Of a DNA stretch of 64,000 nucleotides, positions 39,182-57,673 are shown piece by piece. The stretch's first letter is position 1. Every line of letters begins with the position of its first letter. The DNA comes from Candidatus Polarisedimenticolia bacterium (lineage in GTDB: Bacteria; Acidobacteriota; Polarisedimenticolia; Gp22-AA2; AA152). Below the pieces are notes generated by a model that saw nothing but the letters and a program-made list of their open reading frames with translations, made no database searches and was not told the DNA's origin. The stretch lies in NCBI GenBank assembly GCA_035764505.1, contig DASTZC010000281.1, positions 326 to 64,325 on the forward strand. Reading direction: 5' to 3'. The position numbers and the translations under genes are program-made.

Positions 39182-40282
39182 ATGTCGTACGAGTTGGGAG
39201 CGCGGCTCAAGGAGATCCTGCTGCGGACGGCTCCGGCCTTCATGGCGGACCGCTGGCAGGCCCCGCGAGTCCTCACCTTCATGATGACCTACCGCTGCAA
39301 CCTGCGCTGCACCATGTGCTGGCAATGGGGCGAGCAGGGTCTGTTCCACGAGATGCCGCGCGAGCACGAGCTGCAGCAGCTGGATCTCGCCACGCTGCGC
39401 GCGGTGGTGGATGATGTCGCCGCGGAAGGTACGGGAGTCTTCCTGTGGGGCGGCGAGCCCTTCCTGCACCGCGACCTCCTCCCCTTCGTCGAGCACGTCA
39501 AGTCCCTGGGAATGTACTGCAGCATCAACACCAACGGAACCTACCTGCCGCGCGACGCCCGCCGGCTGGTGGATCTGGGGGTGGACGCCATCATGGTGTC
39601 GGTGGACGGCCCGCGCGAGGTGCACGACCGGATCCGCGGCATGGACGGCTCGTTCCAGAAGATTGCCGACGGTTTGAAGGCGGTGCGCGCGGCGCGCAAC
39701 GGCGGCGCCAAGCCGGAGATCGTCGTCAACACCACCGTCTCCCCCGGCAACCAGGATGTTCTCTTGAAGACCTACGAGACCGTGGAGGCCCTGGGCGCAG
39801 ATCGGATGATTCTTTCGCAGCTCTGGTTCACCACCGAGGAGATCGGCCGAGCCAACGAGGCCTACTTCCGCGAGAAATTCAGCGCCCACGCCGGGTCATG
39901 GAAAGGCTTCGTGATGGACGTGTCGAGTCTCGACCCCGATCTCATCGGTTCGCAGATGCGCGAGATGGCGCGCCGTGACAAGTCGCTCCCCCTGAGCTTC
40001 CTCCCGGACCTGCATCCCGGACAGATCGCGGCCTATTACCGTAAGCCATCCGAGGCCTTCGGCAAGACGCGCTGCCTGGTCCCGTGGCTGGAGGCCGAGA
40101 TTCTGCCGAACGGGGACGTTACGCCCTGCTCCGATCGGCCCGATCTGATCATGGGCAACGTCCGCCGGCAGCGCTTCGGTGAAATATGGAACAACGAGCC
40201 CTACCAGACCTTCCGCCGCGCCATGCGGGAGGACGGGCTTTTCCCTTACTGCTCCCGCTGCTGCGGGCTCTGGTCTCATTGA
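39182..40282 (+). CDS. Radical SAM protein with C-terminal SPASM/twitch auxiliary cluster domain
   Basis: CNLRCTMC (Cx3Cx2C) is about 45 residues from the N-terminus, and the C-terminal Cys cluster (CLVPW...C...CSRCCG) is present. The protein is 366 aa. Confidence 0.8.
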   Translation: MSYELGARLKEILLRTAPAFMADRWQAPRVLTFMMTYRCNLRCTMCWQWGEQGLFHEMPREHELQQLDLATLRAVVDDVAAEGTGVFLWGGEPFLHRDLLPFVEHVKSLGMYCSINTNGTYLPRDARRLVDLGVDAIMVSVDGPREVHDRIRGMDGSFQKIADGLKAVRAARNGGAKPEIVVNTTVSPGNQDVLLKTYETVEALGADRMILSQLWFTTEEIGRANEAYFREKFSAHAGSWKGFVMDVSSLDPDLIGSQMREMARRDKSLPLSFLPDLHPGQIAAYYRKPSEAFGKTRCLVPWLEAEILPNGDVTPCSDRPDLIMGNVRRQRFGEIWNNEPYQTFRRAMREDGLFPYCSRCCGLWSH

Positions 40283-40292
40283 GGTCGTCGTG

Positions 40293-41210
40293 ATGCGCTC
40301 CATATCGGTCCTCATCTGCACCCGCGATCGCAGCGCCATGCTGGAAGAGTGCCTGCGTTCGGTGCTGGCCTGCGCGCCGGGGGCCACCGAGATCGTGGTG
40401 GTGGACCAGAGCGCCGATGAGACGACCCGGCTGGCGGTCTGCCGACAGCAGGGAGGCAAGGTGCCGGTGCGCTACCTGCGCAGCCGGGGCAAGGGGCTGT
40501 CGCACGCGAAGAACCAGGGAATTGCCGATTGCACCTCCGACATCGTCGCCTTCACCGACGATGACTGCCGGGTCGATGCGGGCTGGCTCGGAGCGATCAC
40601 CGGCCCGATTGCCGCCGGCACGGCGGGCGCCGTCGCCGGCCGGACCCTGCCGGAGCCCGGGAGCGACGGAGGCGAGGAGACCCGCTCGATGTACGCGCCG
40701 CCGCAGGCCCGCTCCTTTTCGGCCCGGACGCATCCCTGGCGGGTCGGCGGGGGAGGAAATTTCGCGGTGCTGCGCGAGGCGATGCGCCGCGTCGGACCGT
40801 TCGACGAGCGCTTCGGCCCCGGCGCCCCCCTCGAGAGCGCCGAGGATATGGACATGGTGCATCGCCTGCTGCGCGCCGGCTTCCGTATCGTCTACGTCCC
40901 CGAAGCGGTGGTGCAGCACCGCTCCTGGCGGGCTCCGGTGGAGAACCGCCGCCTGGCCCGCCGCTACGGCGTGGGCGCGGGCGGCTATTTCGCCAAGCAT
41001 TTCGTCGCGGGCGATTTGATCAGCGGATGGCGCTTCGTGCAGCGCGCCGGAGTGCGCAGCCTGTCGCTCGCTTCGGGAGCGCTGCGCGGCGACGGCCGGA
41101 AGATGGAAGAACAGCTCGAGTATTTGAAGGGCCTTTTCCAGGGGGGCGCGCGTTACTTCGCATGTATCTCCGCCGGAATGGCGGGACTCGAGAAAGGACG
41201 GGCCCGATGA
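40293..41210 (+). CDS. GT2 glycosyltransferase
   Basis: ISVLICTRDR...VVDQSADE...FTDDDCRV are present. Confidence 0.75.
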   Translation: MRSISVLICTRDRSAMLEECLRSVLACAPGATEIVVVDQSADETTRLAVCRQQGGKVPVRYLRSRGKGLSHAKNQGIADCTSDIVAFTDDDCRVDAGWLGAITGPIAAGTAGAVAGRTLPEPGSDGGEETRSMYAPPQARSFSARTHPWRVGGGGNFAVLREAMRRVGPFDERFGPGAPLESAEDMDMVHRLLRAGFRIVYVPEAVVQHRSWRAPVENRRLARRYGVGAGGYFAKHFVAGDLISGWRFVQRAGVRSLSLASGALRGDGRKMEEQLEYLKGLFQGGARYFACISAGMAGLEKGRAR

Positions 41211-42691
41211 CGCGCCGCATCGGGGAGATGGAAGTGAGAACGCTGGTCGGGGTCCTGGTCGGCTCCGCGGTGGCCGTGTTCATCCTGGCGGCTGCCTTCG
41301 GACTGTTCAATCCTCAAGATACCTCGCAGCCCGAGGGAGCGGTGGTCGCCGCAGCTCTGCGGGTGGCGCATGGCGAGCCCCTGTTCCTGAACATCCACAA
41401 GGGACCTTACGTGACCGCCATGTACGGGCCGGTGCTCTATCTGGCGCTGGGGGCGATGACCCGGCTTTTCGGGGCCGGCGTCGACGGGGCTTACCTGCTG
41501 GGCCGGATCCTGGCCCTCGCATCGGCCGTCGCGAGCGCGCTGATCCTGATCCGCCTGGCGCGGCATGCCGGGGCCGATCGTTTCGGAGCGCGAGTGGCCG
41601 GCGCGCTGTTCCTCGCCTCTCCCATCATCCTGCCGGTGGCCTATTCATCGCGCAGCGACGTGCCCGCCGTGGCGCTCTCGCTTCTCGGGATGCTGATCTA
41701 CACGTTGCACGCCGATTCCCCCCGCCGGTACTGGGCGATTCTGCCGCTGGTGGCGGCCGCCTTCACCAAGCAGACCGCCCTGGCGGCGACGCTGGCAATC
41801 GCGCTGCATCTGATCTGGGAGAAGAAGCCCGGGAAGGCCATCCTCTTTATAGGGGCCGTCGCGGTTCCCTGCCTGGCCATCCTGCTGGGCCTGGATCGGC
41901 TCACCGGGGGGCTGGCCACGATGAACCTCTTCGAGGTTCCCGGCTCCTCGCCACTGAGCTTCATCAGCCGGCCGCTGGGGGGGTTGGCGATGTTCCTGGC
42001 GCTCGCCGCCCTGCCGCTGATCCTGGCGGCGCCGGCAATTCTGTCGGGACCGGATCCGAAGCTGCGTCTTCCGGCCTGCTACCTGCTGGTCTCCGTGGCC
42101 GTCTCCATGGCCGCCTCCACCAAGCTGGGGAGCGACACCTATTACTTCATGGAGCCGCTGGCCGCCGCTCTGATTCTCGCCGGAGCGGGGTTGGCGCGAC
42201 TCGCCGGGCGCGAAGGTGCCACACTGCAGCAGGCGCCGGCCGCCCTGCTGGCGGGGCTGTTCTGCGTCGGCATCGCCTCTTCGGTCGGGATGACCGGGAG
42301 GATGGCCGAGTTCCGCTATCGCCCCAACCAGGATGCGGTGCGCATCGCCGCCGAGGCACCGGGCGACGTCCTGATCGAGGACGAGAACGTGGCCCTCAAG
42401 TGCGGCAAGCCGCTCACCATCATGGATCCCTTCGCCTTCGCCTACATGGAGAAGCGAGGCCGGTGGGATCCGGGGCCCCTGAACCGGCGGATCCTGGCGC
42501 GCGAGTTCGGAGCGATCCTGCTGCGCTCGCCGCTCGAGCACCCCAGCCATTACCAGGGAGAGAACTACTGGGCACCCACCACGCTCGAGGCGATGGACCG
42601 CGCCTACCGCATGGATCGGATCGTGGACGGCTTGTTCGTCTACCGGCCGCGGGCCGAGCTGGCAGCGAGTGCCGCGGGAGGGCGCTCATGA
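41207..42691 (+). CDS. GT-C fold membrane glycosyltransferase (PMT_2/ArnT-like)
   Basis: It has about 12 TM segments and a first-loop acidic motif, and it resembles the 42688, 44358 and 58813 proteins. ATGA overlap. Confidence 0.55.
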   Translation: MTRRIGEMEVRTLVGVLVGSAVAVFILAAAFGLFNPQDTSQPEGAVVAAALRVAHGEPLFLNIHKGPYVTAMYGPVLYLALGAMTRLFGAGVDGAYLLGRILALASAVASALILIRLARHAGADRFGARVAGALFLASPIILPVAYSSRSDVPAVALSLLGMLIYTLHADSPRRYWAILPLVAAAFTKQTALAATLAIALHLIWEKKPGKAILFIGAVAVPCLAILLGLDRLTGGLATMNLFEVPGSSPLSFISRPLGGLAMFLALAALPLILAAPAILSGPDPKLRLPACYLLVSVAVSMAASTKLGSDTYYFMEPLAAALILAGAGLARLAGREGATLQQAPAALLAGLFCVGIASSVGMTGRMAEFRYRPNQDAVRIAAEAPGDVLIEDENVALKCGKPLTIMDPFAFAYMEKRGRWDPGPLNRRILAREFGAILLRSPLEHPSHYQGENYWAPTTLEAMDRAYRMDRIVDGLFVYRPRAELAASAAGGRS

Positions 42692-44361
42692 GCGTGCGGG
42701 GTGCTCTGGGAGAGATGTCGATTCTGCCGCTGCGCGCCGCCGCCGACCGGGCCCTGCCGGGATGGTCGGCGCGCCACGAGATCCTTGCGCTGGTGCTGGC
42801 GCTCGCCGCCTTCGCCGCGGCGCTCGCGCCCGCCCTGAGGGAATCGGGGACGCCGCCCGGCTGGGATCCCGCGAATCATCTGCGCGACAGCCTGGTCGTC
42901 GAGCGGATCCTGACCCATCCGGGGACCGTGAGCCTGCCCGTTGTGCGCGCCATCCTGCACGGCTCCGAGGACTACCCGCTGATCACGCCGACCGGCTACT
43001 ACCCTCCGCTGGTCCCCGCCGTGACGGCCTTGCTCTATCTCGCGGCGGGCCACAGCTACGAGACGGCGATGGCGACGAACCTGCTCTTCCTCGGAGTGCT
43101 CGCCTTCGCGGTGTGGGGGCTGGGCAACGCGCTGGCGCCGCGGCCCGCCGGATTGCTGGCGGCCCTGCTGGTGCTGGCCGCGCCCGGCATCCGCTCCAAC
43201 GCCCGGGAGTACATGCTCGATCTGCCGCTGGCGGCGCTGGTGATCCTGGCGGTCTGGGCCCTGCTGAAGACACGCGGCTTTGCCGATCGCCGCTGGAGCC
43301 TTTTCTTCGGAGCGCTGTGCGGTACCGGCATGCTGGCCAAGTGGAGCTTCTTCTTGTTCCTGGCGCCCCCGATGACCTGGGCCGTTGCGCGCAGCTGGGT
43401 TGCGGACGGCAGGGAAGCCTCGCCGCGGCGCCGGGCGGCCAACCTGGGGTTGGCGCTGCTCGTCGGGGCGGCGCTCGTCGCACCGTATTACCTGCCGATC
43501 CTGCCAATCCTGGCTCGCAAGACCTGGGTGCACGCGGGGGGCGCCGCCGATGGCTTCGAGTCTCCCTTCACCCTCTTCTCGGTGCGCTACCACCTCGAGG
43601 CGCTGCCGAGAAGGCTGATGGGGTGGCCCCTCACGCTGGCGACCGCCGCCGGGATCGCAGCGGGTCTGTGGCGCGGCACGGCGCGGCGATCGATCGGGCT
43701 GCTGCTGGGCTGGGCGGCGGTCCTCTACGTCGTTTTCACCTTCGGCGTCGCCAACAAGCAATCACGCTACCTGCTCCCCTGGATCCCGGTGCTCCTGCTG
43801 GCCGCCTCCATCGGCCTGGCCGATCTCTGGCGGCGCGCCGCCTCCCGGCACGTCGCGGTCACGGGCGCGGCCGCCGTGCTGCTGCTGATGCCGGCGGCGG
43901 GTCTGCGCGGCGGATGGGAGGCCGGCGGTAGCGGCGACTGGAAAATGGCGGCGCTGACCGGGGCGATCGAGAAGGATCTCTCCGAGCACAAGGCGTCGGA
44001 TCGCGTCCGCAAGGTCGGAGTGGTGGCCGACATGCAGTCGGTCAACGGCCCGACGGTCGCCTACTTCACGGCGCGCCGCGGTCTGCCGGTCACCGTCGTA
44101 CAGCTGGTGAACCGGATGAAATCGCATGTCGCCATGGAAGTCGGGCTGGACCCTTTCGGGCGTCCCGACTTCTACCAGTCCTTCACGGAGTACGACTACC
44201 TGGTCACCAAGACCGGCGACAGCGCGGTGCCGCCGTGGGAAGGGGTGGTGCCCGAGATGATGCGCTACGTCGAGAGCCGCAGAAGCGAGCTGGACGAGAT
44301 CGCCACTTTTGCGGTTCCCGACGGATCGATCGTGTCGCTGTACGGGAGGAAGGACCGATGA
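42688..44361 (+). CDS. GT-C fold membrane glycosyltransferase (PMT_2/ArnT-like)
   Basis: HGSEDYPLITPTGYYPP is followed by multiple TM segments and a C-terminal soluble domain. ATGA overlap. Confidence 0.55.
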   Translation: MSVRGALGEMSILPLRAAADRALPGWSARHEILALVLALAAFAAALAPALRESGTPPGWDPANHLRDSLVVERILTHPGTVSLPVVRAILHGSEDYPLITPTGYYPPLVPAVTALLYLAAGHSYETAMATNLLFLGVLAFAVWGLGNALAPRPAGLLAALLVLAAPGIRSNAREYMLDLPLAALVILAVWALLKTRGFADRRWSLFFGALCGTGMLAKWSFFLFLAPPMTWAVARSWVADGREASPRRRAANLGLALLVGAALVAPYYLPILPILARKTWVHAGGAADGFESPFTLFSVRYHLEALPRRLMGWPLTLATAAGIAAGLWRGTARRSIGLLLGWAAVLYVVFTFGVANKQSRYLLPWIPVLLLAASIGLADLWRRAASRHVAVTGAAAVLLLMPAAGLRGGWEAGGSGDWKMAALTGAIEKDLSEHKASDRVRKVGVVADMQSVNGPTVAYFTARRGLPVTVVQLVNRMKSHVAMEVGLDPFGRPDFYQSFTEYDYLVTKTGDSAVPPWEGVVPEMMRYVESRRSELDEIATFAVPDGSIVSLYGRKDR

Positions 44362-46355
44362 GTCCGGTGCCCGTTCCGATGCGCGCCGAGGACGCGCTTC
44401 CCGTGGTAGAGCCGATGGGATCCCGCGGCCGTCACCTGCTCGCCGCCGCATTGGCCCTGACCGGGTTGTCTGCAGGATACCTGGCGATGCATCTCGAGCC
44501 GATGCTGGGCCGCTTCGACACGCTCACCTTCCTCCTGGCCGATCCGGCGGGACGGATGGAGCGGATCAAGCTGTCGATCCTGGCGTGCGGCGGGCTGCTG
44601 TCGCTGCTGGCGCTCGCCTCCTTGATCTCGGTCCGGCTCGCCGCGGCTGCCGCGGGCGTGGCGATGCTGGCCGCGGCAGCCCTGAGCCATCCGCTGGGCA
44701 GTCAGCTGCTCTCGCAGGAGAGAGGATTGGAGGAGAGCCTTCTGTATCGTCTGCGCGGACTGGCCGACATCTCTCTGGTCGCCGGGTTGTTCCTCCTCTT
44801 CCTGGCGGTGCTCCCGACCCTGCTCGCCGCGGAGCCGCGCAAGGTGGAGGGCGCGCTGCAGCGGTTCCTGGAATCGGCGCGCCGGATCTGGCGCTCGATG
44901 CGACCGGCGCGGCGGCGACTGCTGCTCGCCGCTCTGGTTTTCGCGACGGCGGTGATCCTGGGGCAGGTCGTGCTGCAGGACTTCCCCAACTCCTCGGATG
45001 AGAGCTCGTACCTGACACAGGCGCGCATCTTCGCCGACGGCCGGCTGTGGGTGCCGGCGCCGCCTCACCCGGAGTTCTTCCGCGCCCGCAGCTTCGTGAT
45101 GGATGTCGAGCATGGACGCTTCTTCGCCAAGGCATTTCCCGGCTGGTCGGCGCTGCTGGCCATCTTCGTGAAGCTCGGAGTGCCGCAGATCCTCAACCCG
45201 CTCCTCGCCGCGCTGACCGTGGCGCTGTTCGGCTGGCTGGCGGCCCGGCTCCTGGGACCGCGGAGCGAGGCTTTGGCCCTCTCGCTCCTGGCGGCAGCAC
45301 CCTTCTTCCTGTTCAACGCCGCATCGTATTTCAACCACCCTCTCACCCTTCTGCTGGTCACCGCCTTTCTCGCCGCGGTGTGGAGGGTGGAGGAGACCGG
45401 CTCGGCGCGCTGGACGGCGGCGGCCTCGGCGGCGGCCGCCGCGGCGCTGACGGTACGGCCCGCATCGGCCCTGCTCCTCACCGGGCCTTTCGTGATCTAT
45501 CTGGCCTGGCGGTTCATGACCGCGCGGCGCGGGGCGCACCTGGCGGCGCTGGTGATGCCGCTGGCGGCTTCCGTGGCGCTGCTGGCCTTCTTCAATGGGA
45601 CGCTGTATGGCTCGGCCTGGCGATCCGGATATCAGGCCTACGATCCCGGCGACATCCAGGCCGGGCTCGGCCCCGGGAATCTGATGGTGACGGCCTGGTG
45701 GCTGGTCAAGCTGATGCTCTGGGTCGTCCCGGGGAGCCTCGTGGGGATCGCTTTCCTCGCGAGCGGACGGGCGGGGGAGCGCGCGACGCCGCGCCGGCGG
45801 ATTCTGACTCTGGCGGCCATCGCCTTCGTCCTGGATGCGGTGGGACACCTCATCTTCCAGAACAAGGGGAGCAACGAGTATGGTCCGCGCTACTACCTCG
45901 ACGGCTTCGTCTACCTCGTCCTGCTGGCGACCGCGGGATGGCAGAAGTGGCTGGCCCAGCGGCGCGGCGAGGAAGGGGAACGCGCCCGGCGCGGCCTGGT
46001 CCTGTCCGGCGCCGCGGCGCTCGCCCTGACCTTCGGGCTGACCCTGCCGCTGCTGGCCTACCACTATCGCGACAAAGTAGCCCACAACCGCGACCTGTAC
46101 GCCACGGTGCGGGCGACCGGATTGAAATCGGCCCTCGTCTTCCTGCAGACCGGCAGCGGCCGCATGCCGCCGGGCGATCTGGTGCGCAACCCGCTCGATT
46201 TCCGCACCGGGATCGTCTACGCGCGCGATCTGGGCCAGGAGAGCCGGCGTCAGCTGCAGGCCCTTTATCCCGACCGCCCGGCCCTGGTCTATTCGTACGA
46301 TCCGTTCCGGCGGCGCTCCCATCTGGAGCTGCTGGAATCGGGAGGCACGCGATGA
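44358..46355 (+). CDS. GT-C fold membrane glycosyltransferase (PMT_2/ArnT-like), 665 aa
   Basis: DESSYLTQARIF (DE motif) is followed by more than 10 TM segments. ATGA overlap. Confidence 0.5.
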   Translation: MSPVPVPMRAEDALPVVEPMGSRGRHLLAAALALTGLSAGYLAMHLEPMLGRFDTLTFLLADPAGRMERIKLSILACGGLLSLLALASLISVRLAAAAAGVAMLAAAALSHPLGSQLLSQERGLEESLLYRLRGLADISLVAGLFLLFLAVLPTLLAAEPRKVEGALQRFLESARRIWRSMRPARRRLLLAALVFATAVILGQVVLQDFPNSSDESSYLTQARIFADGRLWVPAPPHPEFFRARSFVMDVEHGRFFAKAFPGWSALLAIFVKLGVPQILNPLLAALTVALFGWLAARLLGPRSEALALSLLAAAPFFLFNAASYFNHPLTLLLVTAFLAAVWRVEETGSARWTAAASAAAAAALTVRPASALLLTGPFVIYLAWRFMTARRGAHLAALVMPLAASVALLAFFNGTLYGSAWRSGYQAYDPGDIQAGLGPGNLMVTAWWLVKLMLWVVPGSLVGIAFLASGRAGERATPRRRILTLAAIAFVLDAVGHLIFQNKGSNEYGPRYYLDGFVYLVLLATAGWQKWLAQRRGEEGERARRGLVLSGAAALALTFGLTLPLLAYHYRDKVAHNRDLYATVRATGLKSALVFLQTGSGRMPPGDLVRNPLDFRTGIVYARDLGQESRRQLQALYPDRPALVYSYDPFRRRSHLELLESGGTR

Positions 46356-47302
46356 GGCTGCCGCTGAGCATTCTGGTTTGCACGCACAACCGTGCCGGCG
46401 TCCTGCGCGACGCGCTCGCCAGCCTGGAGGCGCAGACGCTGCCGCGGGATCGCTTCGAGGTCCTGGTGGTGGACAACGCCTCCACCGACGACACGCCGGA
46501 GGTTGTGGCCGGCTTCGCCCGCCGCGGGATACTCGATGTGCGCGTGTTCCGCGAGATGGAGCTGGGTCTCGACGCCGCCCGCAACCGGGGGGTGCGCGAG
46601 GCCAAGGGAGAGATCATCGCCTTTCTGGACGATGACGCGCGGGCACGTCCCGAGTGGGCCGCCGCCATCCTCGATGGCTTCGCCCGTCACGACGCGCCCA
46701 TCGTGGGGGGAAAGGTGGATCTGGTCTGGGAGGCGCCGCGGCCGATCTGGTTCAGCGACGTCCTGCTGCGCTACTTGATCCACTGCGACTATGGCACACA
46801 GGTCATCGAGATCGTCTCTCCGCCCTGGTTGTATGGGACCAACGTCGCGTTCCGGCGGGAGATCTTCCAGGAGATCGGCTTGTTCCGACTGGATCTGGAT
46901 CGCAAGGGGAGCTCACTCATGGGAGGCGGCGACACCGAGTTCTTCATCCGGGCGCGTGCCCGCGGCAAGCGCCTCCTCTACCTCCCGGAGCTGGTGGTCG
47001 ATCATCTGGTTCCCGCCAGCCGTCTGACCCGGGAGTTTTTTCGCGAGCGCCTGTTCTACTCCGGCTACACGCGCGCGGCGCACGGCACCGAATCGGTGCC
47101 GCGCCGGGCGGCGAATTGCCTGGTATTCGCGGCGGGGGGCCCCGCCTGCGCCGTCGCAGCGGGGGCGCTGCGGCTCGCGGGGCTCGCGCGGCAGAGCTTC
47201 GCCCAGGAGCGCCGTGCGCTCCTGGCCTGCGGCTATCTCTACTACTTCCTCCTCAAGGCCGGCGGCCGCGTCCCCCCGCCGCGCCTGGAGGCATGGACCT
47301 GA
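46352..47302 (+). CDS. GT2 glycosyltransferase
   Basis: LSILVCTHNR...VVDNASTDDT...LDDDA are present. ATGA overlap. Confidence 0.75.
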   Translation: MRLPLSILVCTHNRAGVLRDALASLEAQTLPRDRFEVLVVDNASTDDTPEVVAGFARRGILDVRVFREMELGLDAARNRGVREAKGEIIAFLDDDARARPEWAAAILDGFARHDAPIVGGKVDLVWEAPRPIWFSDVLLRYLIHCDYGTQVIEIVSPPWLYGTNVAFRREIFQEIGLFRLDLDRKGSSLMGGGDTEFFIRARARGKRLLYLPELVVDHLVPASRLTREFFRERLFYSGYTRAAHGTESVPRRAANCLVFAAGGPACAVAAGALRLAGLARQSFAQERRALLACGYLYYFLLKAGGRVPPPRLEAWT

Positions 47303-50017: not shown

Positions 50018-51750
50018 AAGCAGTCATTCTCGCGGGCGGCCAGGACACCCACATGGTGCCGCTCGTCCGCACGGTCCCCAAGGCCCTGCTGCCCGTGGCC
50101 AACCGCCCGATGGTGGAATACCTGCTGCACCTCTTGAAGTCGAACGGGGTGCGCGAGGTCGCCCTGGCGGTAAGCGGCTCGGGAGATGCCTACAGCCATA
50201 CCCTCGGCGACGGAAAGGCCATCGGGATGCAGCTGCACTACTCGCAAGAGGCGCTGCCGCGCGGGACGGCCGGGTGCCTCCTCCCCTTGAAGGACTTCAT
50301 CGACTCGGAGCCCTTCATGGTGATCCACGGCAGCCTCTTCCTGGACGCCGACCTCGGCTCGCTCGGCGCGTTCCACCAGGACAAGGGGGCGGCGGTCACC
50401 ATCGCGGTGCGCCCCTACTCGGAAGGCTCCCGCGACTGGCACCACATGGAGCTCGAGGTAGGCGAGGAGGGGGAGGTCAGCTCCATGCGGGTGCGCAACC
50501 TCTCCCAGAGCGACCGCCTGGCCCGCGTGCCGGTGGGTGTCTACGTCTTCGATCCCGGGGTCCTCGATGTGATCCAGCCGGGAGTCTACTTCGACATCAA
50601 AGAGCAGCTCCTGCCGCGCCTGCGCGAGGAGGGCCGCGCCATCCAGGCGGTGGACCTGGACGGCTACTGCAAGAACGTCCTGGAATTGCGCGACTATCTG
50701 CGGGTCAACCGGGCGGTCCTGCTGGGGCACGTCAACGGCTACAGTTTCGAAGGCGAGATTGCCGATCGGATCTGGGTCGGGCGCGGCAGCCGCGTGTCCA
50801 ACATGTCGCACCTGTTCGGCCCGGTGATGATCGGACGCGATTGCGTCATCGGCTCCCAGACGCAGCTCATCGGGCCGGTGTGCATCGGTGACGGCTGCGT
50901 GGTGGAGGACGGCGCCGTGATCCGCGAGAGCTTGCTGCTCCCCGGGTCCCACGTGGAGCGCGACTCGCGGGTGGACGGCTGCGTCCTGGCGGCCGACACC
51001 GTCGTCTCCCCGGGCCAGAGCCTGCGCGGGGTGGTGGCGATCCCGGAGAGTCTGGACATCGGCGAGGTGGATCTCTCCGACGCCGACTTGGTCATCCAGG
51101 GGCTGGCCTCGTCGGCCGGGCATTACGCCCGCGGCCTCGCGGCGCGCGCCATGTACCGCTTCTTCAAGCGGGCCATGGATCTGGGGGCGGCGCTGGCCGG
51201 TCTCGTCCTGCTGCTGCCGGTGATTCTGGTGGTCGCCGCCGTCGTGAAGGCGACCTCTCCCGGGCCGATCTTCTTCCGCCAGAAGCGCTGCGGCCGCAAC
51301 GGACGCGAGTTCAAGATGGTCAAGTTCCGCACGATGGTGAAGGACGCCGAGGCGATGCAGACCGACCTGCGCCCCAAGAACGAGGTGGACGGTCCCATGT
51401 TCAAGATGGAGAACGATCCCCGCTCGACCAAGCTGGGGAAGCTCCTGCGCCGCTTCAGCATCGACGAGATCCCCCAGCTGTGGAACGTGCTGATGGGAGA
51501 GATGAGCCTGGTGGGCCCGCGCCCCCTGGCCGAGAAGGAGATGCAGTTCTGCCCGGCCTGGCGCGACGCGCGATTGAAGGTGCGGCCGGGGATCACCGGC
51601 CTGTGGCAGGTCAGCGGCCGGAGCAAGACGTCGTTTCACGACTGGATCCGCCTCGACATCGAATACGTGCGGGAGCGGTCCCTGATGCTGGATCTGAGAA
51701 TCCTCTTGCGGACCCTGTTCATCGTGTTCCACACGCGCGGGTCCTTCTGA
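50014..51750 (+). CDS. Fusion protein: an N-terminal sugar-1-phosphate nucleotidyltransferase with LbH domain, joined to a C-terminal polyprenyl-phosphate phosphoglycosyl transferase (Bac_transf/PglC-like initiating enzyme)
   Basis: The N-terminus has the NTP-transferase G-x-G-T-R-L-like motif (MKAVILAGGQDTHMVPL) and hexapeptide repeats. The C-terminus has a reentrant helix plus DEIPQLWNVL...VGPRP, the PGT catalytic signature. Confidence 0.75.
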   Translation: MKAVILAGGQDTHMVPLVRTVPKALLPVANRPMVEYLLHLLKSNGVREVALAVSGSGDAYSHTLGDGKAIGMQLHYSQEALPRGTAGCLLPLKDFIDSEPFMVIHGSLFLDADLGSLGAFHQDKGAAVTIAVRPYSEGSRDWHHMELEVGEEGEVSSMRVRNLSQSDRLARVPVGVYVFDPGVLDVIQPGVYFDIKEQLLPRLREEGRAIQAVDLDGYCKNVLELRDYLRVNRAVLLGHVNGYSFEGEIADRIWVGRGSRVSNMSHLFGPVMIGRDCVIGSQTQLIGPVCIGDGCVVEDGAVIRESLLLPGSHVERDSRVDGCVLAADTVVSPGQSLRGVVAIPESLDIGEVDLSDADLVIQGLASSAGHYARGLAARAMYRFFKRAMDLGAALAGLVLLLPVILVVAAVVKATSPGPIFFRQKRCGRNGREFKMVKFRTMVKDAEAMQTDLRPKNEVDGPMFKMENDPRSTKLGKLLRRFSIDEIPQLWNVLMGEMSLVGPRPLAEKEMQFCPAWRDARLKVRPGITGLWQVSGRSKTSFHDWIRLDIEYVRERSLMLDLRILLRTLFIVFHTRGSF

Positions 51751-51754
51751 GGGG

Positions 51755-53995
51755 TTGAGAGGAGAGAGGGAAATGAGGGAAGAGACGCAGCAGCAACAGA
51801 CCTCCGAGCTCGAGTTCGATATCCAGGCCTATCTCCGCCTGATCGCAGCCAACAAGTGGATCATCATCTCCTTCACGATCGTGCTCGGCGTCGCCGTGGG
51901 GGTCTGGTCGTCCCTGCAGCCCAAGCTGTACGAGGCCCAGAGCAGCGTCCTCGCGGGGCGCGAATTGCCCCGCCTGCTCAGCTTCGACGACGTCCTGCCG
52001 GGCGAGCAGATCCGCGACCTCAACTACGTCCAGACGCAGGTGGCGATCCTCGGGAGCCGCAGCTTCCTGCAGAAAGCGGTGAAGCGCCTCATCCGGGAGG
52101 GCTTCTACGGCAAGGTGGACGAGAAGGACGTCGAGAACAAGTCGCGCAAGCTCGCCAAGATGATGGAGCCGCGTATCAACGTCATGCCGGCCGGGCAGTC
52201 GCGCGTCCTCAAGATCACCGTGCGCGGCGGCTTCCCCGACCGGGTGGCGCGCATCGCCGATGCCATCGCCGAAGAATACGTCGACAGCAACCTGGAGAAG
52301 AAGCAGCAGATGGCGGACCAGGGGGTGACCTGGCTGGAATCAAGGCTGGCCGAGCAGAAGGCGAAGCTGGGCGAGGCCGAGTCGGCGCTGCAGACCTTCA
52401 AGGAGCAGGAGAACATCATGGCCTCCGACGAGGAGGATCCCTTCTCGACTCTGGCGCTGGGACGGCTGAATGAAGAGTACCTGACCACCCGCTTCCAGCG
52501 CATGGAACGCGAGCAGCGCATCGAGGCGCTCAAGCGCGCCACCAAGGGCGGCAGCTCCTCTTCTTCGGGGGCGAAGAGCGCCACCAACGCTCTCGACGCG
52601 GAGGTTCAGAACGCGGTCAAGGAGCAGATGAAGAAGGAATATGTCGACGGCCAAATCCAGCTGCGCGAGCTGTCGCAGCGCTACGGCCCGGACCATCCCG
52701 ACATCCTGTCCCTCAAGCTCAAGGTGGATCGGATCGGCGCGGAGCTGAAGACCATGGATGTCCCGGACATGGGGACGCCGAGTGCCGACCCGTCGCTGAA
52801 GGGTGCCTCCCTGGCCGAGCTGACCTCCGACTACAACATCCTCAAGAACAAGGAAGACGCCCTCGCCAAGACCCTCGAGTCCCACAAGGCGGCAGTGCGC
52901 AACGTCGGCCGCGTGGGGGTGCGCTACGGCTTCCTGAAGCAGGAGGTCGAGATCAATCGCACGACCTACAACGGGCTGCTGCAGCGCCTCAACGAGACGA
53001 AGCTGTCGGGCGAGATCAAGAACCCGGCCGTGCTGGTCCTGGACAAGGCCGAGGTCCCGACCATACCGGTGGAGCCCAACGTAGGGCGCAACATCATGAT
53101 GGCCCTGGTTCTCGGGCCGGTGTTCTCCATCGGCTTCGTCCTGCTGCGCGAGCACCTGGACAGCCGGATGAAGGGGCCGGATGACGCGGGCCGGACGCTG
53201 GGCCTGCCGGTCCTGTGCGTGGTCCCCGAGCTGCCGGGCGGGCCGGGCGAGAAGGTGAACGGCGTCATGCCGCTGCTGACGGTGAACGAGCCGCGCTCGC
53301 ACGTGGCGGAGATGTACCGAAATTTGAGAACCTCGATCCTGTTCTCCTCGGGGAAGCAGAACATCAAGACGGTCCTGGTCACCAGCGCGGTGGCGGGTGA
53401 AGGGAAGTCGACCACGGCGGCCAACCTCGCCGCGGTCATGGCCCAGAGCGGACGCAAGGTCCTGCTGATCGACGCCGATCTGCGGCGCCCCGCCCTGCAC
53501 CGCTATTTCAACCGCGAGCAGGGACGCGGCATCGTCCGTCTCCTGACCACCGACTGCACGCTGGAGGAGGCGATCCAGACCTCGAGCGTGGAAAACCTGG
53601 ATCTGCTGCTGTGCGTCGGCATCCCGCCCAATCCTTCCGAGCTGCTGGGCTCGGAGCGCGCGCGCATGGTCATGGAGCAGCTGAAGGCACGCTACGACCT
53701 GATCGTCGTCGACTCGCCGGTCCTGATCTCGGTGACCGACTCGGTGATCCTGGCGGCGCGCTCGGACGCGGTGCTGATGGTGCATCGTCCCGGGGCGGCG
53801 GAGCGTACCCTCGTGCGTCGGGCGCGGGAAAGGCTGGACGAGGTCCAGGCCAACGTCATCGGGCTGGTCCTGAACAAGGTGAATCTCAAGAAGCAGGGCT
53901 ACCGGTATCCGGAATACGGCTACTACGGCTACGAGGGCTATCCCTCGCAGGACGCCGCGGCCGAGAAACCCAAGGGAAAGCAGAAAAAGGCGTGA
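51755..53995 (+). CDS. wzc: Polysaccharide co-polymerase/BY-kinase (Wzc/EpsB-like tyrosine autokinase)
   Basis: It has an N-terminal TM segment, a Wzz periplasmic coiled coil, a second TM segment and Walker A GEGKSTTAANLA. The C-terminus carries the Tyr cluster YRYPEYGYYGYEGY. Confidence 0.85.
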   Translation: MRGEREMREETQQQQTSELEFDIQAYLRLIAANKWIIISFTIVLGVAVGVWSSLQPKLYEAQSSVLAGRELPRLLSFDDVLPGEQIRDLNYVQTQVAILGSRSFLQKAVKRLIREGFYGKVDEKDVENKSRKLAKMMEPRINVMPAGQSRVLKITVRGGFPDRVARIADAIAEEYVDSNLEKKQQMADQGVTWLESRLAEQKAKLGEAESALQTFKEQENIMASDEEDPFSTLALGRLNEEYLTTRFQRMEREQRIEALKRATKGGSSSSSGAKSATNALDAEVQNAVKEQMKKEYVDGQIQLRELSQRYGPDHPDILSLKLKVDRIGAELKTMDVPDMGTPSADPSLKGASLAELTSDYNILKNKEDALAKTLESHKAAVRNVGRVGVRYGFLKQEVEINRTTYNGLLQRLNETKLSGEIKNPAVLVLDKAEVPTIPVEPNVGRNIMMALVLGPVFSIGFVLLREHLDSRMKGPDDAGRTLGLPVLCVVPELPGGPGEKVNGVMPLLTVNEPRSHVAEMYRNLRTSILFSSGKQNIKTVLVTSAVAGEGKSTTAANLAAVMAQSGRKVLLIDADLRRPALHRYFNREQGRGIVRLLTTDCTLEEAIQTSSVENLDLLLCVGIPPNPSELLGSERARMVMEQLKARYDLIVVDSPVLISVTDSVILAARSDAVLMVHRPGAAERTLVRRARERLDEVQANVIGLVLNKVNLKKQGYRYPEYGYYGYEGYPSQDAAAEKPKGKQKKA

Positions 53996-55008
53996 AGCTC
54001 ATCATCCAGATCCCCTGCTTGAACGAGGAGACCACCCTCCCGATCACTCTCGCGGGGCTGCCGCGCAGCCTCCCCGGGGTGGATCGCATCGAGCTTCTGG
54101 TCATCGACGACGGGAGCACCGACCGCACCGCGGAGGTGGCCCGGCGCCTGGGCGTGCATCACGTCGTGGTGCTGCCGACCCACCAGGGGCTGGCACGCGC
54201 CTTCACCCAGGGACTGGACGCGGCCCTCAAGCTCGGCGCCGACATCATCGTGAACACCGATGCCGACAACCAGTACGACGCTCGCGATCTGGAGCGGCTC
54301 ATCACCCCCATCCTCGAGGGCACGGCGGATCTCGTCGTGGGCGATCGGCGGGTCCAGACGCTCGGGCACTTCTCACGGGTCAAGCGGATGCTGCACCGCC
54401 TCGGGGACCACGTGATGCGGCGCCTTTCGGGGCTGGAGCTGCTCGACTCGACCAGCGGCTACCGGGCCTTCAGCCGGGAGGCGGCGCTGCGGCTGAATGT
54501 CTTCTCGCGCTTCACCTATACCCTGGAGACGCTGATTCAGGCCGGCAAGAAGCATCTGGCGGTGGCGCACGTGCCGGTAGGTGTCAACAAACAGCTGCGC
54601 GAATCGCGGCTGTTCCCGAACCTGTGGTTCTACATCAAGCGGTCGGTGAGCACGATGGTGCGGATCTATGCGCTCTACGAGCCGCTGAAGGTCTTTGCCT
54701 ACGCCGGCCTGACGCTGCTGGCCGGCGGCGGGCTGCTGATCGCCCGGTTCTTCTACTTCTATTTCACCGCCGAGGGGTCCAGCGGCCACACCCAGTCGTT
54801 CCTGGCGGGGACGGCGCTCTCCATCCTCGGGGCGGTGACCATCCTCTTCGGCGTCGTCAGCGACCTGATGGCGGCCAACCGGCAGCTGGTCGAGGACGTG
54901 CAGTACCGGCTGCGCAAGATGGAGCTGGAGAATCTGGAGAGCGACTCGGAGCACGCCGCCTCGCGACGGAAGACTTCCTCCTGGGGCGGCGGAGGGAAGC
55001 CGTCATGA
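53992..55008 (+). CDS. GT2 polyprenyl-phosphate sugar synthase (GtrB/ArnC/DPM1-like) with two C-terminal TM helices
   Basis: IIQIPCLNEE...VIDDGSTD...DADNQY are present, with C-terminal TM segments. GTGA overlap. Confidence 0.75.
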   Translation: MKLIIQIPCLNEETTLPITLAGLPRSLPGVDRIELLVIDDGSTDRTAEVARRLGVHHVVVLPTHQGLARAFTQGLDAALKLGADIIVNTDADNQYDARDLERLITPILEGTADLVVGDRRVQTLGHFSRVKRMLHRLGDHVMRRLSGLELLDSTSGYRAFSREAALRLNVFSRFTYTLETLIQAGKKHLAVAHVPVGVNKQLRESRLFPNLWFYIKRSVSTMVRIYALYEPLKVFAYAGLTLLAGGGLLIARFFYFYFTAEGSSGHTQSFLAGTALSILGAVTILFGVVSDLMAANRQLVEDVQYRLRKMELENLESDSEHAASRRKTSSWGGGGKPS

Positions 55009-56135
55009 CGATGCGGCGCGTCCTCGTCACGGGAGGAGCCGGATTCATCGGCTCGCACCTGGTCGCCGCGCTGAGAGCGCGCGGGCACCGCGTGCGCGTC
55101 CTGGATGTCCTCGATCCGCAGGTGCACGGCCGCGACGGCCGGCACCGAGGCACGCCCGAGGACGTCGAGATGCTGCGCGGCGACATCCTGGACGAGGAGC
55201 TGCTCGGCCGTGCTCTGGAGGGCATCGAGGTGCTGTTTCATCAGGCCGCCAGCGTGGGCGTCGGCCAATCGATGTACGAGGCGGCCGCTTATACGCGGGT
55301 GAACAGCCTGGGGACGGCGCTGCTCATGCAGCGCCTGGCGGCGCCGGGCTCGAAGGTGGAGAAGGTCGTCGTCGCCTCGTCGATGTCGCTCTACGGCGAG
55401 GGATACTACTCCTGTCCCTCCTGCGGCCCGGTCCATCCGCAGCCGCGCAGCCGGCGCAGCCTGTCGCCGGGCGAATGGGAGCCGGCCTGCCCGCGCTGCA
55501 AGGCGCCGCTGGAGCCTCTACCCACGGCGGAGACGGTGCCACCTGCGCCCACATCGATCTACGCCATCACCAAGCGCTGCCAGGAGGAGACGGTGCTGGT
55601 GATGGGGCGCGCCTACGGCATTCCGGCCGTCGCCTTGCGCTACTTCAATGTCTATGGCCCCGGCCAGGCGCTGTCGAACCCTTACACCGGCGTGGCGGCG
55701 ATTTTCGCCAGCCGCCTGCTCAATGGGGCGGCCCCGATCCTCTTCGAGGACGGCATGCAGAGCCGCGATTTCATCCATGTCTCCGATATCGTGCGCGCCA
55801 ACCTGCTGGCGATGGAGAAGCCGCAGGCGGACGGCGAGGTGTTCAACGTGGGGACCGGCCGGCGCACGACCTTGCTGGAGATGGCCTCCTCGCTGGCGGC
55901 CAAGCTGCGCCCTCAGGGAGACGCGGCGCCCCAGGTGGCGGGGACCTTCCGGGAAGGCGACATCCGACATTGCTTCGCGGACGTGACGAAGATCGGCAAG
56001 GCCCTCGGATTCGAGGCGGCAATGCCCTTGGAGCGCGGCTACGAGGACCTGGCCGAGTGGGCCAGGACCCAGAAGCCGCAGGATTTCACCCGCGAGGCGG
56101 TCGCGGAGCTCGAGGCGCGCGGGCTGGTCTCCTGA
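55005..56135 (+). CDS. NAD-dependent epimerase/dehydratase (extended SDR) with inserted Cys4 zinc-ribbon
   Basis: GGAGFIGSHL, YxxxK and YFNVYGP are present. A ~40-aa insertion YYSCPSCGPV...PACPRCK interrupts the Rossmann core. Confidence 0.8.
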   Translation: MTMRRVLVTGGAGFIGSHLVAALRARGHRVRVLDVLDPQVHGRDGRHRGTPEDVEMLRGDILDEELLGRALEGIEVLFHQAASVGVGQSMYEAAAYTRVNSLGTALLMQRLAAPGSKVEKVVVASSMSLYGEGYYSCPSCGPVHPQPRSRRSLSPGEWEPACPRCKAPLEPLPTAETVPPAPTSIYAITKRCQEETVLVMGRAYGIPAVALRYFNVYGPGQALSNPYTGVAAIFASRLLNGAAPILFEDGMQSRDFIHVSDIVRANLLAMEKPQADGEVFNVGTGRRTTLLEMASSLAAKLRPQGDAAPQVAGTFREGDIRHCFADVTKIGKALGFEAAMPLERGYEDLAEWARTQKPQDFTREAVAELEARGLVS

Positions 56136-56182
56136 CCCGCGCCGCCCGGGAATCTCATTCACCGAAAGGAGTGCGCAGTTCC

Positions 56183-57673
56183 ATGTTCAAGGCTCTCGTG
56201 ACCAACCCACCCTGGCCAGGGGACGGCTACGGCGCCCGGTCCTCCGTGCGCTGGCCGCACAAACGCAAGGACAAGAAGCTCGAATTCCCCATTTTCCTCG
56301 CCTACACCGTCGCGCTCCTGAAAGAGAAGGGGGTGGAGACCGTCTTCCTGGACGGCGTCTGCGACGAGCTGGACATCGAGCGCTACGCCGCCGAGGTGGC
56401 GCGCATCGCGCCCGACTTCATCGCCATGGAGTGCTCGACTCCCTCCATCGATCACGACCTCCAGTCGATCCGACGAATCAAGGAGCTGCGGCCGCAGACC
56501 TTCGTGGCGCTGATGGGCTCGCACGCGACCTACTATCACCAGGAGCTGCTGCGGGAGCACCCGGAGATCGGCGCCATCATCCGCGGCGAGTTCGAGGTCA
56601 CGGTGCGCGAGGTGGCCCTGGCGCTCCGCGCCGGCTCGAATCTGGAGAAAGTCGCCGGAGTGACCTGGCGCGGCGAAGGCGGCATCCGCGTCAATCCGGA
56701 TCGCCCCTTCGAGGGTGATCTCGACCGCTGGCCCTATCCCGATCGCGAATCGATCCTGATGGAGAAGTACCAGACGGCGCAGTACCAGGGGAAAAAGGGG
56801 ACCTTCATGCTCTCCAGCCGCGGCTGCCCCTATCGCTGCACCTTCTGCCTGTGGCCGGGGACGATGGTGGGGCGCGACTTCCGTGCCCGCGACCCGGAGT
56901 CGGTGGTCGACGAGATGGAGTACCTCGTGCGCCAGCACGGCGTCGACGACATCTACTTCGACGACGACACCATGACCATCGATCGGGAGCGGCTCCTGCG
57001 GATCTGCCGGCTGATCCAGGAGCGCGACCTGAAAGTCCACTGGATCTCCATGGGGCGCGTCGACACGGTGGACGATGAGCTGCTCAGTGAGATGCGCAAG
57101 GCCGGGTGCGACAACCTGTACCTCGGGGTCGAGTCGGGATCGCAGGAGATCCTCAATCGCCTGAAGAAAGGGATCACGCTCGATCAGGTCGTGAAGGCCT
57201 TCCAGGCGGCGCGGCGCGCCGGCATCAAGACCCAGGCCTTCTTCATGCTGGGCGGACCGGGAGAGACGAAGGAGACCTTGAAGGAGACCATCGACTTCGC
57301 CGTGAAGCTGGATCCCGACAACGCTCAGTTCGCCGCCGCGGTGCCCTATCCCGGCACCGAGATGTACGAAGAGTCGCTGCGCAAGGGCTATCTGCGGGCC
57401 ACCAGCTGGGAGGACTACGCCGCCAAGGACATCGTCCTGGAGACCGAGACCCTGTCGCGCCTGGACCTCGAGAAGGCCCGGCTCGAAGCCTACCGGCGCT
57501 TCTACCTGCGCCCTCGCTTCATCATGCGCACGGCGTCACGGCTGACCAGCACGCGCGAGTTCCGGCGCGTCTGGCGGGGCACCGTCTCCATCGTGAGTCG
57601 GCTGCTCTACTTCTCCAAGAACGTCCGCCGCAAGACGCGCTCCACGACGCGCGGCGCCCTGGAATCGGCGTGA
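56183..57673 (+). CDS. B12-binding domain radical SAM protein (class B), paralog of 47337..48818
   Basis: The same architecture, with SSRGCPYRCTFC, is present. The two share VRWPH/DRWPH and other blocks. Confidence 0.8.
   Translation: MFKALVTNPPWPGDGYGARSSVRWPHKRKDKKLEFPIFLAYTVALLKEKGVETVFLDGVCDELDIERYAAEVARIAPDFIAMECSTPSIDHDLQSIRRIKELRPQTFVALMGSHATYYHQELLREHPEIGAIIRGEFEVTVREVALALRAGSNLEKVAGVTWRGEGGIRVNPDRPFEGDLDRWPYPDRESILMEKYQTAQYQGKKGTFMLSSRGCPYRCTFCLWPGTMVGRDFRARDPESVVDEMEYLVRQHGVDDIYFDDDTMTIDRERLLRICRLIQERDLKVHWISMGRVDTVDDELLSEMRKAGCDNLYLGVESGSQEILNRLKKGITLDQVVKAFQAARRAGIKTQAFFMLGGPGETKETLKETIDFAVKLDPDNAQFAAAVPYPGTEMYEESLRKGYLRATSWEDYAAKDIVLETETLSRLDLEKARLEAYRRFYLRPRFIMRTASRLTSTREFRRVWRGTVSIVSRLLYFSKNVRRKTRSTTRGALESA

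Follow-up and report, generated by a model that had tools for sequence, protein, structure and literature searches.

Three radical SAM enzyme genes in a Wzx-type exopolysaccharide operon of a Polarisedimenticolia bacterium: probable sugar tailoring

Radical SAM genes in the operon

The DNA analysed here, a 64,000 nt stretch with ~68% GC from Candidatus Polarisedimenticolia bacterium contig DASTZC010000281.1 (the window), carries three genes encoding radical S-adenosylmethionine (rSAM) enzymes: a Twitch-type protein and two proteins with a B12-binding domain, B12a and B12b. All three are located in an exopolysaccharide operon, and their products probably act on sugars. The third-position GC (GC3) frame plot reveals a single unbroken run of + strand genes from ~27.1 kb to the window end. 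Start codons were picked at ATGA/GTGA overlaps or behind Shine-Dalgarno-like motifs, domains were assigned by Pfam scans, and subfamilies were sought with NCBIfam models and their curated cut-offs. An earlier note, made from the sequence alone, had placed the rSAM genes at these positions, with a SAM methyltransferase gene immediately before the first; the frame plot, start codons, Pfam matches and a CX3CX2C motif in all three products confirm the former, and a Methyltransf_11 match at 38367-39170 the latter. The operon, the rSAM genes and the genes grouped with them in this report are:

27105..63579, + strand: whole exopolysaccharide operon, ~36 kb (GC3 frame plot, overlapping junctions, Pfam)
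38367..39170, + strand: SAM-dependent methyltransferase (Methyltransf_11, Pfam 3.9e-13), directly upstream of the Twitch gene
39182..40282, + strand: Twitch-type rSAM protein, 366 aa (Pfam Radical_SAM 4e-23 and SPASM 3e-16)
40290..41210, + strand: family 2 glycosyltransferase (GT2; Pfam 1.4e-21), directly downstream of the Twitch gene
46352..47302, + strand: GT2 glycosyltransferase (Pfam 9.7e-30), directly upstream of B12a
47337..48818, + strand: B12-domain rSAM protein B12a, 493 aa (Pfam Radical_SAM 2e-25 and B12-binding 1e-11)
48815..50017, + strand: family 4 glycosyltransferase (GT4; Pfam), with a 4 nt overlap with the B12a stop codon
55005..56135, + strand: NAD-dependent sugar epimerase/dehydratase of the extended short-chain dehydrogenase/reductase type (Pfam Epimerase 3.4e-52), upstream of B12b
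56183..57673, + strand: B12-domain rSAM protein B12b, 496 aa (Pfam Radical_SAM 7e-32 and B12-binding 7e-15)
57675..58826, + strand: GT4 glycosyltransferase GT4b (Pfam), starting 1 nt past the B12b stop codon
60260..62005, + strand: NodU/CmcH-type O-carbamoyltransferase (Pfam Carbam_trans_N 3e-98, Carbam_trans_C 2e-73)
62019..62198, + strand: DUF5989 membrane protein, 59 aa (Pfam DUF5989 1.2e-24), downstream of the carbamoyltransferase gene

The commonest junction within the operon is a 4 nt overlap. The rSAM genes are preceded by gaps of 11, 34 and 47 nt, each with its own ribosome-binding site, and are followed by junctions of +7, -4 and +1 nt for Twitch, B12a and B12b, respectively. Translational coupling, proposed earlier for all three, is therefore retained downstream of the two B12-type genes but not at any of the 5′ junctions or on the 3′ side of the Twitch gene. 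The rSAM genes are clearly co-operonic with their neighbours, and the Pfam matches establish that their glycosyltransferase and polysaccharide surroundings, as described in the earlier note, are real. As the three are found within ~20 genes, in an order kept gene for gene in four related loci (L001 and L092-L094), their grouping is not due to chance.

Placement of the three proteins

The Twitch protein has its rSAM motif at C39, C43 and C46, and its only other cysteines are at positions 113, 298, 316, 357, 360 and 361. In two alignments, one of 16 homologues and one of 69, extending down to 30% identity, conservation beyond the rSAM triad is confined to C298, C316, C357 and C360, with the spacing C298-X17-C316, including G311-X4-C316, followed by C357-X2-C360, all conserved. 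A PF13186 (SPASM) score of 59.9 bits, above the 21.5-bit cut-off, argues for a SPASM-related fold, and in this sense the SPASM designation made earlier stands; there is, however, one auxiliary-cluster cysteine set only, and membership of the two-cluster SPASM class, with its seven-Cys motif (CX9-15GX4C...CX2CX5CX3C...C), was rejected. Judged by its cysteines the protein is Twitch-type (half-SPASM), with one predicted auxiliary cluster like that of BtrN, for which the spacing is CX17C...CX2C, and its C-terminal part can be aligned with the auxiliary domain of BtrN (chain residues 184-255). With C298, C316, C357 and C360 as the sole auxiliary set, the analogy drawn earlier to anSME, AlbA, MftC and PqqE is weak.

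BlsE is both the best Protein Data Bank (PDB) sequence match of the Twitch protein (22% identity) and the best fold match of its AlphaFold2 model (pLDDT 92.5; TM-scores 0.67/0.75), followed in fold by SkfB, CteB, SuiB, DesII, PqqE and anSME. The first core strand of the model starts at residue 30, with 28 residues ahead of the core, and because the core starts there the model predicts no N-terminal RRE, the recognition element of enzymes for ribosomally made peptides that carry post-translational modifications (RiPPs). The matches to NCBIfam models are partial and restricted to the core, the best reaching 110 bits against a cut-off of 380, and N_Twi_rSAM is likewise matched in part (81 bits versus 170). 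The anSME model is absent among the 25 best NCBIfam matches listed for this protein, all of which are far below cut-off. Identity as an anaerobic sulfatase maturase was rejected, given no cut-off-level score, one auxiliary cluster and no sulfatase among the window genes scanned. The Twitch, B12a and B12b proteins have no predicted transmembrane segment and are soluble.

B12a and B12b both have the class B rSAM layout, an N-terminal Rossmann-type B12-binding domain followed by the rSAM core. PF02310 scores 45.0 and 55.3 bits, respectively, against a 32.1-bit cut-off, and the CX3CX2C cysteines are C219/C223/C226 in B12a and C215/C219/C222 in B12b. Over 467 aa the two proteins share 37% identity (E 5e-103). 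Homologues of B12a comprise orthologues at 77-99% identity and then a dozen clusters at 42-55%, and there are >2,200 homologues of B12b, with a large shell at 50-56% identity across bacteria and archaea. Two loci, L009 and L172, each hold a B12a-type copy (48% and 49% identity, respectively) together with a B12b-type copy (53-56%), and cross-comparisons of B12a-type with B12b-type sequences in these loci give 34-38% only. Each window protein is thus closer to proteins of other lineages (48-56%) than to its partner (37%), and by this sequence measure B12a and B12b are two old, separately conserved orthogroups rather than products of a recent duplication. The description of the pair as B12-binding paralogs, made earlier, holds for the domain and the 37% identity, but the orthogroups are old and the domain does not prove use of cobalamin.

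The best NCBIfam match of both proteins is HpnJ (TIGR03471), full-length, at 244.8 bits for B12a and 290.4 bits for B12b against a cut-off of 577.6, followed by BchE (TIGR02026) at 198.6 and 213.8 bits against 481. Weaker matches include the ladderane/lipid B12-rSAM family and HpnR, and the AprD4 model gives 111-140 bits against a 500-bit cut-off; both proteins fall well under every cut-off of the methylase, P-methylase, AprD4 and lipid models. True HpnJ membership was rejected, as the scores are about half the cut-off and no hopanoid genes are present among the scanned window genes, and true BchE membership was rejected on score and gene context. The names given automatically to homologues by JGI, 'anaerobic Mg-protoporphyrin cyclase' and 'YgiQ', are generic. 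In the PDB, AprD4 is the best match of B12b both in sequence (E 2e-34, 24% identity) and in fold (TM-scores 0.72/0.78 over 478 aligned columns, nearly the full length of both proteins). The next structures are TsrM, MgmA, OxsB, TokK and CysS, of which TsrM, MgmA, OxsB and TokK are cobalamin binders, unlike AprD4. Since AprD4 binds no cobalamin (PMC12931638), a Pfam match to the B12 domain is not proof that the window proteins use this cofactor. The subfamily search suggested in the earlier note thus leaves all three rSAM proteins without an NCBIfam model at cut-off, every match being far below, and is in keeping with its remark that the combination corresponds to no characterised pathway that it could name.

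Gene context across lineages and the remainder of the operon

A homologue search with the Twitch protein gave an NCBI protein with 100% identity, from a Candidatus Polarisedimenticolia (Acidobacteriota) genome and a contig of 66.4 kb. Twitch orthologues at 79-84% identity are present in L001, a 272-kb soil contig, and in L092-L094. In these loci the operon is repeated gene for gene, including the methyltransferase-Twitch rSAM pair. The GT2 gene after the Twitch gene keeps its position in L001, L002, L092 and L093, and the GT2 gene upstream of B12a is syntenic in L001. B12b-type homologues with 49-79% identity, from genomes assembled from metagenomes (MAGs) labelled Chloroflexi, PVC or Binatia or left unclassified, have a GT4 and/or GT2 gene directly adjacent in all five loci concerned (L012-L015, L043), and the order GT2-epimerase-B12-GT4 recurs in L012. 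A sixth homologue, at 51% (L025), lies at a contig end without a detectable neighbour. Metagenomic B12b-type homologues at 52-56% identity are found in clusters of glycosyltransferase, Wzx, epimerase, PMT_2 and carbamoyltransferase genes on contigs with GC contents of 43% (L009), 47% (L010, a Bathyarchaeota genome) and 55% (L011), and a GT4 gene adjoins the B12b-type genes of L009 and L011, as it does in L012-L015 and L043. On L172 (GC 62%), homologues of Twitch (35%), B12a (49%), B12b (53%) and GT4b (50%) occur together with two carbamoyltransferase genes and two DUF5989 genes (5975-6133, 7468-7629). Carbamoyltransferase homologues at 46-50% identity are found together with the rSAM genes of L009 and L172, and in L106 one adjoins a Twitch homologue. 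The neighbour comparison proposed in the earlier note therefore finds the linkage of the rSAM genes to this type of locus to be conserved, which differs from the case it had named as refuting, a sulfatase maturase with no such linkage.

A tie to glycosyl transfer is provided by P0322, a 640-aa protein encoded on a 149.9-kb ENA contig, in which an Alg14/GT28-N-like domain (~40-160) is fused to a B12-domain rSAM region (195-533) with 35% identity to B12a; this is a Rosetta-stone-type link of the B12-rSAM family to glycosyl transfer. As counted with a crude greedy open reading frame (ORF) caller and without a matched random control, the immediate neighbours of 66 B12-type homologues include glycosyltransferases (22/126) and further rSAM proteins (25/126), and those of 37 distant Twitch homologues (L095-L164) include sugar aminotransferases of the DegT/DnrJ/EryC1 family, GT4 and GT2 proteins (6/73 each). 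Glycosyltransferases make up ~1-2% of prokaryotic genes. The DegT neighbours of the distant Twitch homologues resemble an arrangement seen with BtrN, in which an rSAM oxidation would be followed by transamination. Five Twitch homologues at 36-41% identity that were inspected have mixed settings: two near-duplicate loci with an adjacent GT1 gene, one in a GT1/sulfatase cluster, one coupled to an uncharacterised gene, and one within the series B12-rSAM-GT2-Twitch-acetyltransferase, with PEP-CTERM and Bac_transf genes nearby. Across the family, gene context therefore shows an enrichment of glycan genes without being uniform.

Several further features were observed in these loci. In L005 (4843-9170), a 39% Twitch homologue is two genes from a sulfatase gene, in the company of GT1, SnoaL, Tricorn/PD40-like and phosphodiesterase genes, and the Twitch homologue of L095 likewise has a SnoaL neighbour; the role of this subgroup may differ and possibly be related to sulfatases. 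In L016 (the whole locus), L048, L062 (8400-15500), L022 and L078, rSAM paralogues are densely arrayed with GT2 genes between them, reaching ~ten B12-domain copies, or six SPASM/Twitch-type copies, per 20 kb; among the MAGs concerned are those of an unclassified bacterium and of Bacteroidales, Methanosarcinales and Omnitrophota. A carbamoyltransferase-DUF5989 pairing recurs in L172 and appears to be conserved. Just upstream of the carbamoyltransferase gene, L009 (16871-17452) and L172 (11520-12119) encode a ~195-aa protein without a Pfam match. Its two copies share 35% identity (E 4e-40), and the window has no homologue of it. In L172 this gene directly follows the B12a-type gene, whereas wzx and a sulfotransferase gene intervene in L009.

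The remaining operon genes, all on the + strand and assigned by Pfam unless stated otherwise, are:

27105-27707, + strand: Wza-like exporter (Poly_export and SLBB)
between the Wza-like exporter and HTH_17 genes, + strand: 421-aa protein without assigned function
29012-29245, + strand: HTH_17 protein, 77 aa
29263-29781, + strand: NusG-like protein
between the NusG-like and APH-like genes, + strand: 220-aa protein without assigned function
30467-31486, + strand: APH-family kinase-like protein, between the NusG-like gene region and wzx
31483-32985, + strand: Wzx (Polysacc_synt)
32982-34736, + strand: Wzy candidate, 584 aa, following wzx, with nine predicted hydrophobic (transmembrane-like) segments and no Pfam match
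between the Wzy candidate and 38367, + strand: GT2, polysaccharide deacetylase (Polysacc_deac_1), GT2 and GT2, in this order
41207-46355, + strand: three polytopic membrane proteins, one with a PMT_2/GT-C match and two with weak or sub-threshold matches
50014-51750, + strand: priming transferase, a three-part fusion of 578 aa (Bac_transf 8e-68)
between the priming transferase and 55005, + strand: Wzc-like kinase (Wzz, GNVR and AAA_31), then GT2
58813-60255, + strand: PMT_2-like (GT-C) membrane protein
after the DUF5989 gene, + strand: GT4, the last gene of the operon

Pfam thus identifies a priming phosphoglycosyl transferase, Wzx, a Wzc-type co-polymerase/kinase and a Wza exporter. The designation of a Wzx/Wzy locus, made earlier, is sound for these components, but Wzy is a candidate only. 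The priming enzyme consists, in order, of a sugar-1-phosphate nucleotidyltransferase, a left-handed beta-helix (hexapeptide) domain and a Bac_transf phosphoglycosyl transferase, also present as a 578-aa fusion in L001; activation and transfer of the first sugar would both fall to one protein. A low-GC leader of ~700 bp (26.4-27.1 kb) without coding signal precedes the operon, and the HTH_17 and NusG-like pair near the operon head is kept in L001; together, leader and gene pair suggest that the 36-kb transcript is antiterminated in an operon-specific, RfaH/UpxY-style manner. The four polytopic membrane proteins (41207-46355, 58813-60255) have 6-10 predicted hydrophobic (transmembrane-like) segments each; two match PMT_2 (GT-C) and two have weak or sub-threshold matches to GT22 or to Leptospira/Azospirillum glycopolymer families. 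These proteins hint at additional glycosylation in the periplasm, with polyprenyl-phosphate sugars as donors that the many GT2 genes could provide. The APH-family gene, kept in L001 and L092, may encode a kinase for a sugar or for the polymer. Elsewhere in the window, on the minus strand (2245-3900), there is a Ser/Thr kinase gene of eukaryotic type, within the first 27 kb, which contains housekeeping genes (miaA, the Ser/Thr kinase gene, an L-aspartate-oxidase-like gene, ccm genes and recG). No sulfatase and no hopanoid or other lipid-synthesis genes (hpn, shc) were found among the window genes scanned with Pfam, and there is no DegT aminotransferase gene in the window's own locus.

Proposed function and likeness to known systems

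The three rSAM proteins are probably cytoplasmic enzymes that tailor the repeat-unit sugars of the exopolysaccharide pathway. A sugar substrate is favoured by membership of the operon, synteny, co-occurrence across lineages, the P0322 fusion, the nearest structures, HpnJ as the best-matching family and the lack of transmembrane segments. The trio would act on nucleotide sugars or on the polyprenyl-diphosphate-linked repeat unit, ahead of flipping by Wzx, in three sets in which each rSAM gene is grouped with adjacent genes, namely methyltransferase-Twitch rSAM-GT2, GT2-B12a-GT4 and epimerase-B12b-GT4. Together with the carbamoyltransferase and DUF5989 genes these sets would constitute a cassette conserved across lineages. 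By analogy with BtrN and BlsE, the Twitch enzyme may abstract a sugar C-H hydrogen, with a two-electron oxidation, epimerisation or decarboxylation then following and the single auxiliary cluster as electron acceptor. B12a and B12b, which are HpnJ/MoeK5/AprD4-like, could catalyse C-methylation at an unactivated sugar carbon, as MoeK5 and GenK do, or a radical rearrangement or deoxygenation. Cobalamin would be required for C-methylation, whereas a rearrangement (an HpnJ/Cds-like ring contraction or an AprD4-like diol dehydration) might not. The modified residue would then probably be O-carbamoylated. The substrate class is inferred from gene context and the nearest structures, and the reaction types are suggested by analogy.

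Some observations weigh against this proposal. The indication that B12a and B12b use cobalamin is the domain call alone, and all the reaction types are analogies drawn from other systems. Neither HpnJ nor BchE nor any other curated family is matched at a score near its cut-off, so that function cannot be carried over from any of them. The neighbour counts are subject to the limits of the ORF caller given above, and distant homologues (~30-40% identity) occur in mixed contexts, including multi-rSAM clusters and the sulfatase cluster of L005. Instead of a free polysaccharide, the product could also be a glycolipid or a glycan linked to protein; the locus encodes four GT-C/PMT_2-like membrane proteins.

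The earlier note raised a modified peptide or protein partner as an alternative to unusual sugar chemistry. One or more of the rSAM enzymes would then mature a peptide or protein, as in RiPP or anSME-like systems, perhaps a secreted or glycosylated target of the locus. The Pfam SPASM match of the Twitch protein, its many partial NCBIfam matches to maturases of peptides (StsB, WgkB and PapB among them), the presence of SkfB, CteB and SuiB among its good fold matches, the PMT_2-like GT-C proteins, a fold that glycosylates proteins in other systems, and the distant homologue two genes from a sulfatase in L005 could all be read in this way. The maturase matches, however, all reach at most about a quarter of their cut-offs, the conserved auxiliary cysteines form one cluster set and not the seven-Cys SPASM motif, the Twitch protein has no RRE domain and there is no sulfatase among the window genes scanned. 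The small-ORF scan proposed in the earlier note found neither precursor-sized intergenic space nor, on either strand and from 27 kb on, any small ORF outside the called genes in 38-58 kb, and hence no small Cys/Ser/Gly-rich ORF in that region. The sole gap in the operon, 62005-62395, holds the DUF5989 gene, and the ORF at 62019-62198, considered as a RiPP precursor, was rejected as it encodes this membrane protein. Among the frequent neighbour families listed for Twitch homologues there are no RiPP-type families, and the commonest listed for homologues include no peptidase, leader-cleaving transporter or precursor family. The RiPP rSAM maturase class was rejected for lack of an adjacent precursor gene and of an RRE domain, and a peptide or protein substrate is very improbable. 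Comparative gene context thus favours the unusual sugar modification over a peptide, as the earlier note had preferred, and a carbohydrate substrate is, with reasonable probability, the best-supported reading.

Lipids are more plausible targets than peptides, although still unlikely ones. Targets of the B12-domain enzymes could be membrane lipids, the polyprenyl carrier or a glycolipid (its anchor or its head group), with parallels in HpnJ and HpnR (hopanoids), Cds (calditol lipids) and the rSAM enzymes of archaea and acidobacteria that modify glycerol dialkyl glycerol tetraethers. Their best curated match, HpnJ, and the weaker ladderane/lipid B12-rSAM family and HpnR are lipid-pathway enzymes, many homologues are from archaea and from anaerobes rich in unusual lipids, and reviews name several lipid-modifying B12-rSAM enzymes (PMC13459092). 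The locus and the other window genes scanned, however, include no hopanoid or lipid-synthesis genes, and the nearest homologues are flanked by GT4, GT2, Wzx, epimerase and carbamoyltransferase genes. HpnJ and Cds (calditol synthase) themselves act on the sugar head group and not on the hydrocarbon (PMC9204698, PMC13459092), so the analogy points to sugar. It is about equally improbable that the rSAM genes are oxygen-independent stand-ins for an ordinary dehydrogenase, epimerase or deoxygenase, in a pathway for a polymer of common sugars only and with no new chemistry. Such replacement would fit the DegT-type aminotransferases adjoining distant Twitch homologues, as in 2-deoxystreptamine synthesis, where the rSAM dehydrogenase BtrN is combined with an aminotransferase, the deoxygenation step carried out by AprD4, the best fold match of B12b, and the mostly anaerobic lineages of the homologues. 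The window's locus, however, has no DegT aminotransferase and already encodes an NAD-dependent epimerase/dehydratase, and three separately conserved rSAM orthogroups plus a carbamoyltransferase suggest more than replacement.

Tailoring of repeat-unit sugars therefore remains the preferred reading. A more specific version of it is put forward tentatively: the cassette of Twitch, B12a-type, B12b-type, GT4, carbamoyltransferase and DUF5989 genes, spanning Acidobacteriota-like MAGs and other uncultured lineages, might build a sugar residue not previously described in surface polysaccharides, conceivably C-methyl-branched or ring-contracted (cyclitol-like) and carbamoylated, through radical chemistry on the lipid-linked repeat unit. 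Known cases of rSAM tailoring of sugars are from the pathways of aminoglycosides, blasticidin and moenomycin, among small-molecule antibiotics, and from the lipid head groups of hopanoids and calditol lipids; the general principle is thus established, and the Wzx-type polysaccharide setting would be the new part. No characterised rSAM step in a Wzx-type surface-polysaccharide pathway was found in NCBIfam or in the full-text literature searched, and that literature contained nothing relevant on rSAM enzymes in capsule, O-antigen or exopolysaccharide loci or in Leptospira rfb. If true, the tentative version would make this polysaccharide assembly line the first of the Wzx type with an rSAM tailoring step. 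Uncharacterised homologues of the three orthogroups number hundreds to thousands, come from uncultured bacterial and archaeal lineages that are largely anaerobe-associated, and in many cases adjoin glycosyltransferases. Once one member is understood, a large set of annotations of the 'radical SAM / YgiQ / BchE-like' kind would gain a function, and new sugar chemistry of environmental exopolysaccharides could come to light; the conserved cassette is a small, concrete gene set.

Of the characterised enzymes, BtrN, a 2-deoxy-scyllo-inosamine dehydrogenase, and BlsE, a cytosylglucuronate decarboxylase, most resemble the Twitch protein. The likeness lies in an rSAM core followed by a short C-terminal domain with the CX17C...CX2C set and one auxiliary cluster, in a small, soluble protein without an RRE, and in the sugar aminotransferase and glycosyltransferase genes adjoining Twitch homologues. 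The Twitch protein differs in its residues 230-297, a bridging region of ~70 residues without an assigned counterpart, and in belonging to a Wzx-type polysaccharide operon, whereas BtrN and BlsE function in antibiotic pathways, on free small molecules.

For the B12-domain proteins, the comparison extends to HpnJ, an enzyme of hopanoid cyclitol-ether formation, which is proposed to contract the ring of a glycolipid glucosamine after the action of a glycosyltransferase and a deacetylase (PMC9204698, PMC13459092), these being the GT2 protein HpnI and HpnK (PMC13459092); the window locus also has GT2 and polysaccharide deacetylase genes. The window contains no hpn or shc genes, and the context is instead one of Wza, Wzc and Wzx. 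HpnK belongs to a deacetylase family other than Polysacc_deac_1, the family of the window's deacetylase. HpnJ and MoeK5 co-cluster in a sequence similarity network, and MoeK5 is the cobalamin rSAM enzyme that C-methylates moenomycin's lipid-linked uronic acid (role cited in PMC9204698). Compared by description only, the moenomycin system and the window share a B12-domain rSAM protein, a NodU/CmcH-type carbamoyltransferase, several glycosyltransferases and a lipid-linked saccharide, and the association of rSAM and carbamoyltransferase genes recurs in the window, L009, L172 and L106. The moenomycin carbamoyltransferase is reportedly MoeM5. Moenomycin differs in being a phosphoglycolipid antibiotic and not a Wzx-exported polymer. 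AprD4, the rSAM 1,2-diol dehydratase of apramycin biosynthesis, also acts on a sugar, the pseudodisaccharide paromamine, but requires a partner reductase, AprD3, and none was identified at the window locus. As judged by sequence and fold matches, the solved structures nearest to the Twitch protein and to B12b, those of BlsE and AprD4, are both of sugar-modifying enzymes.

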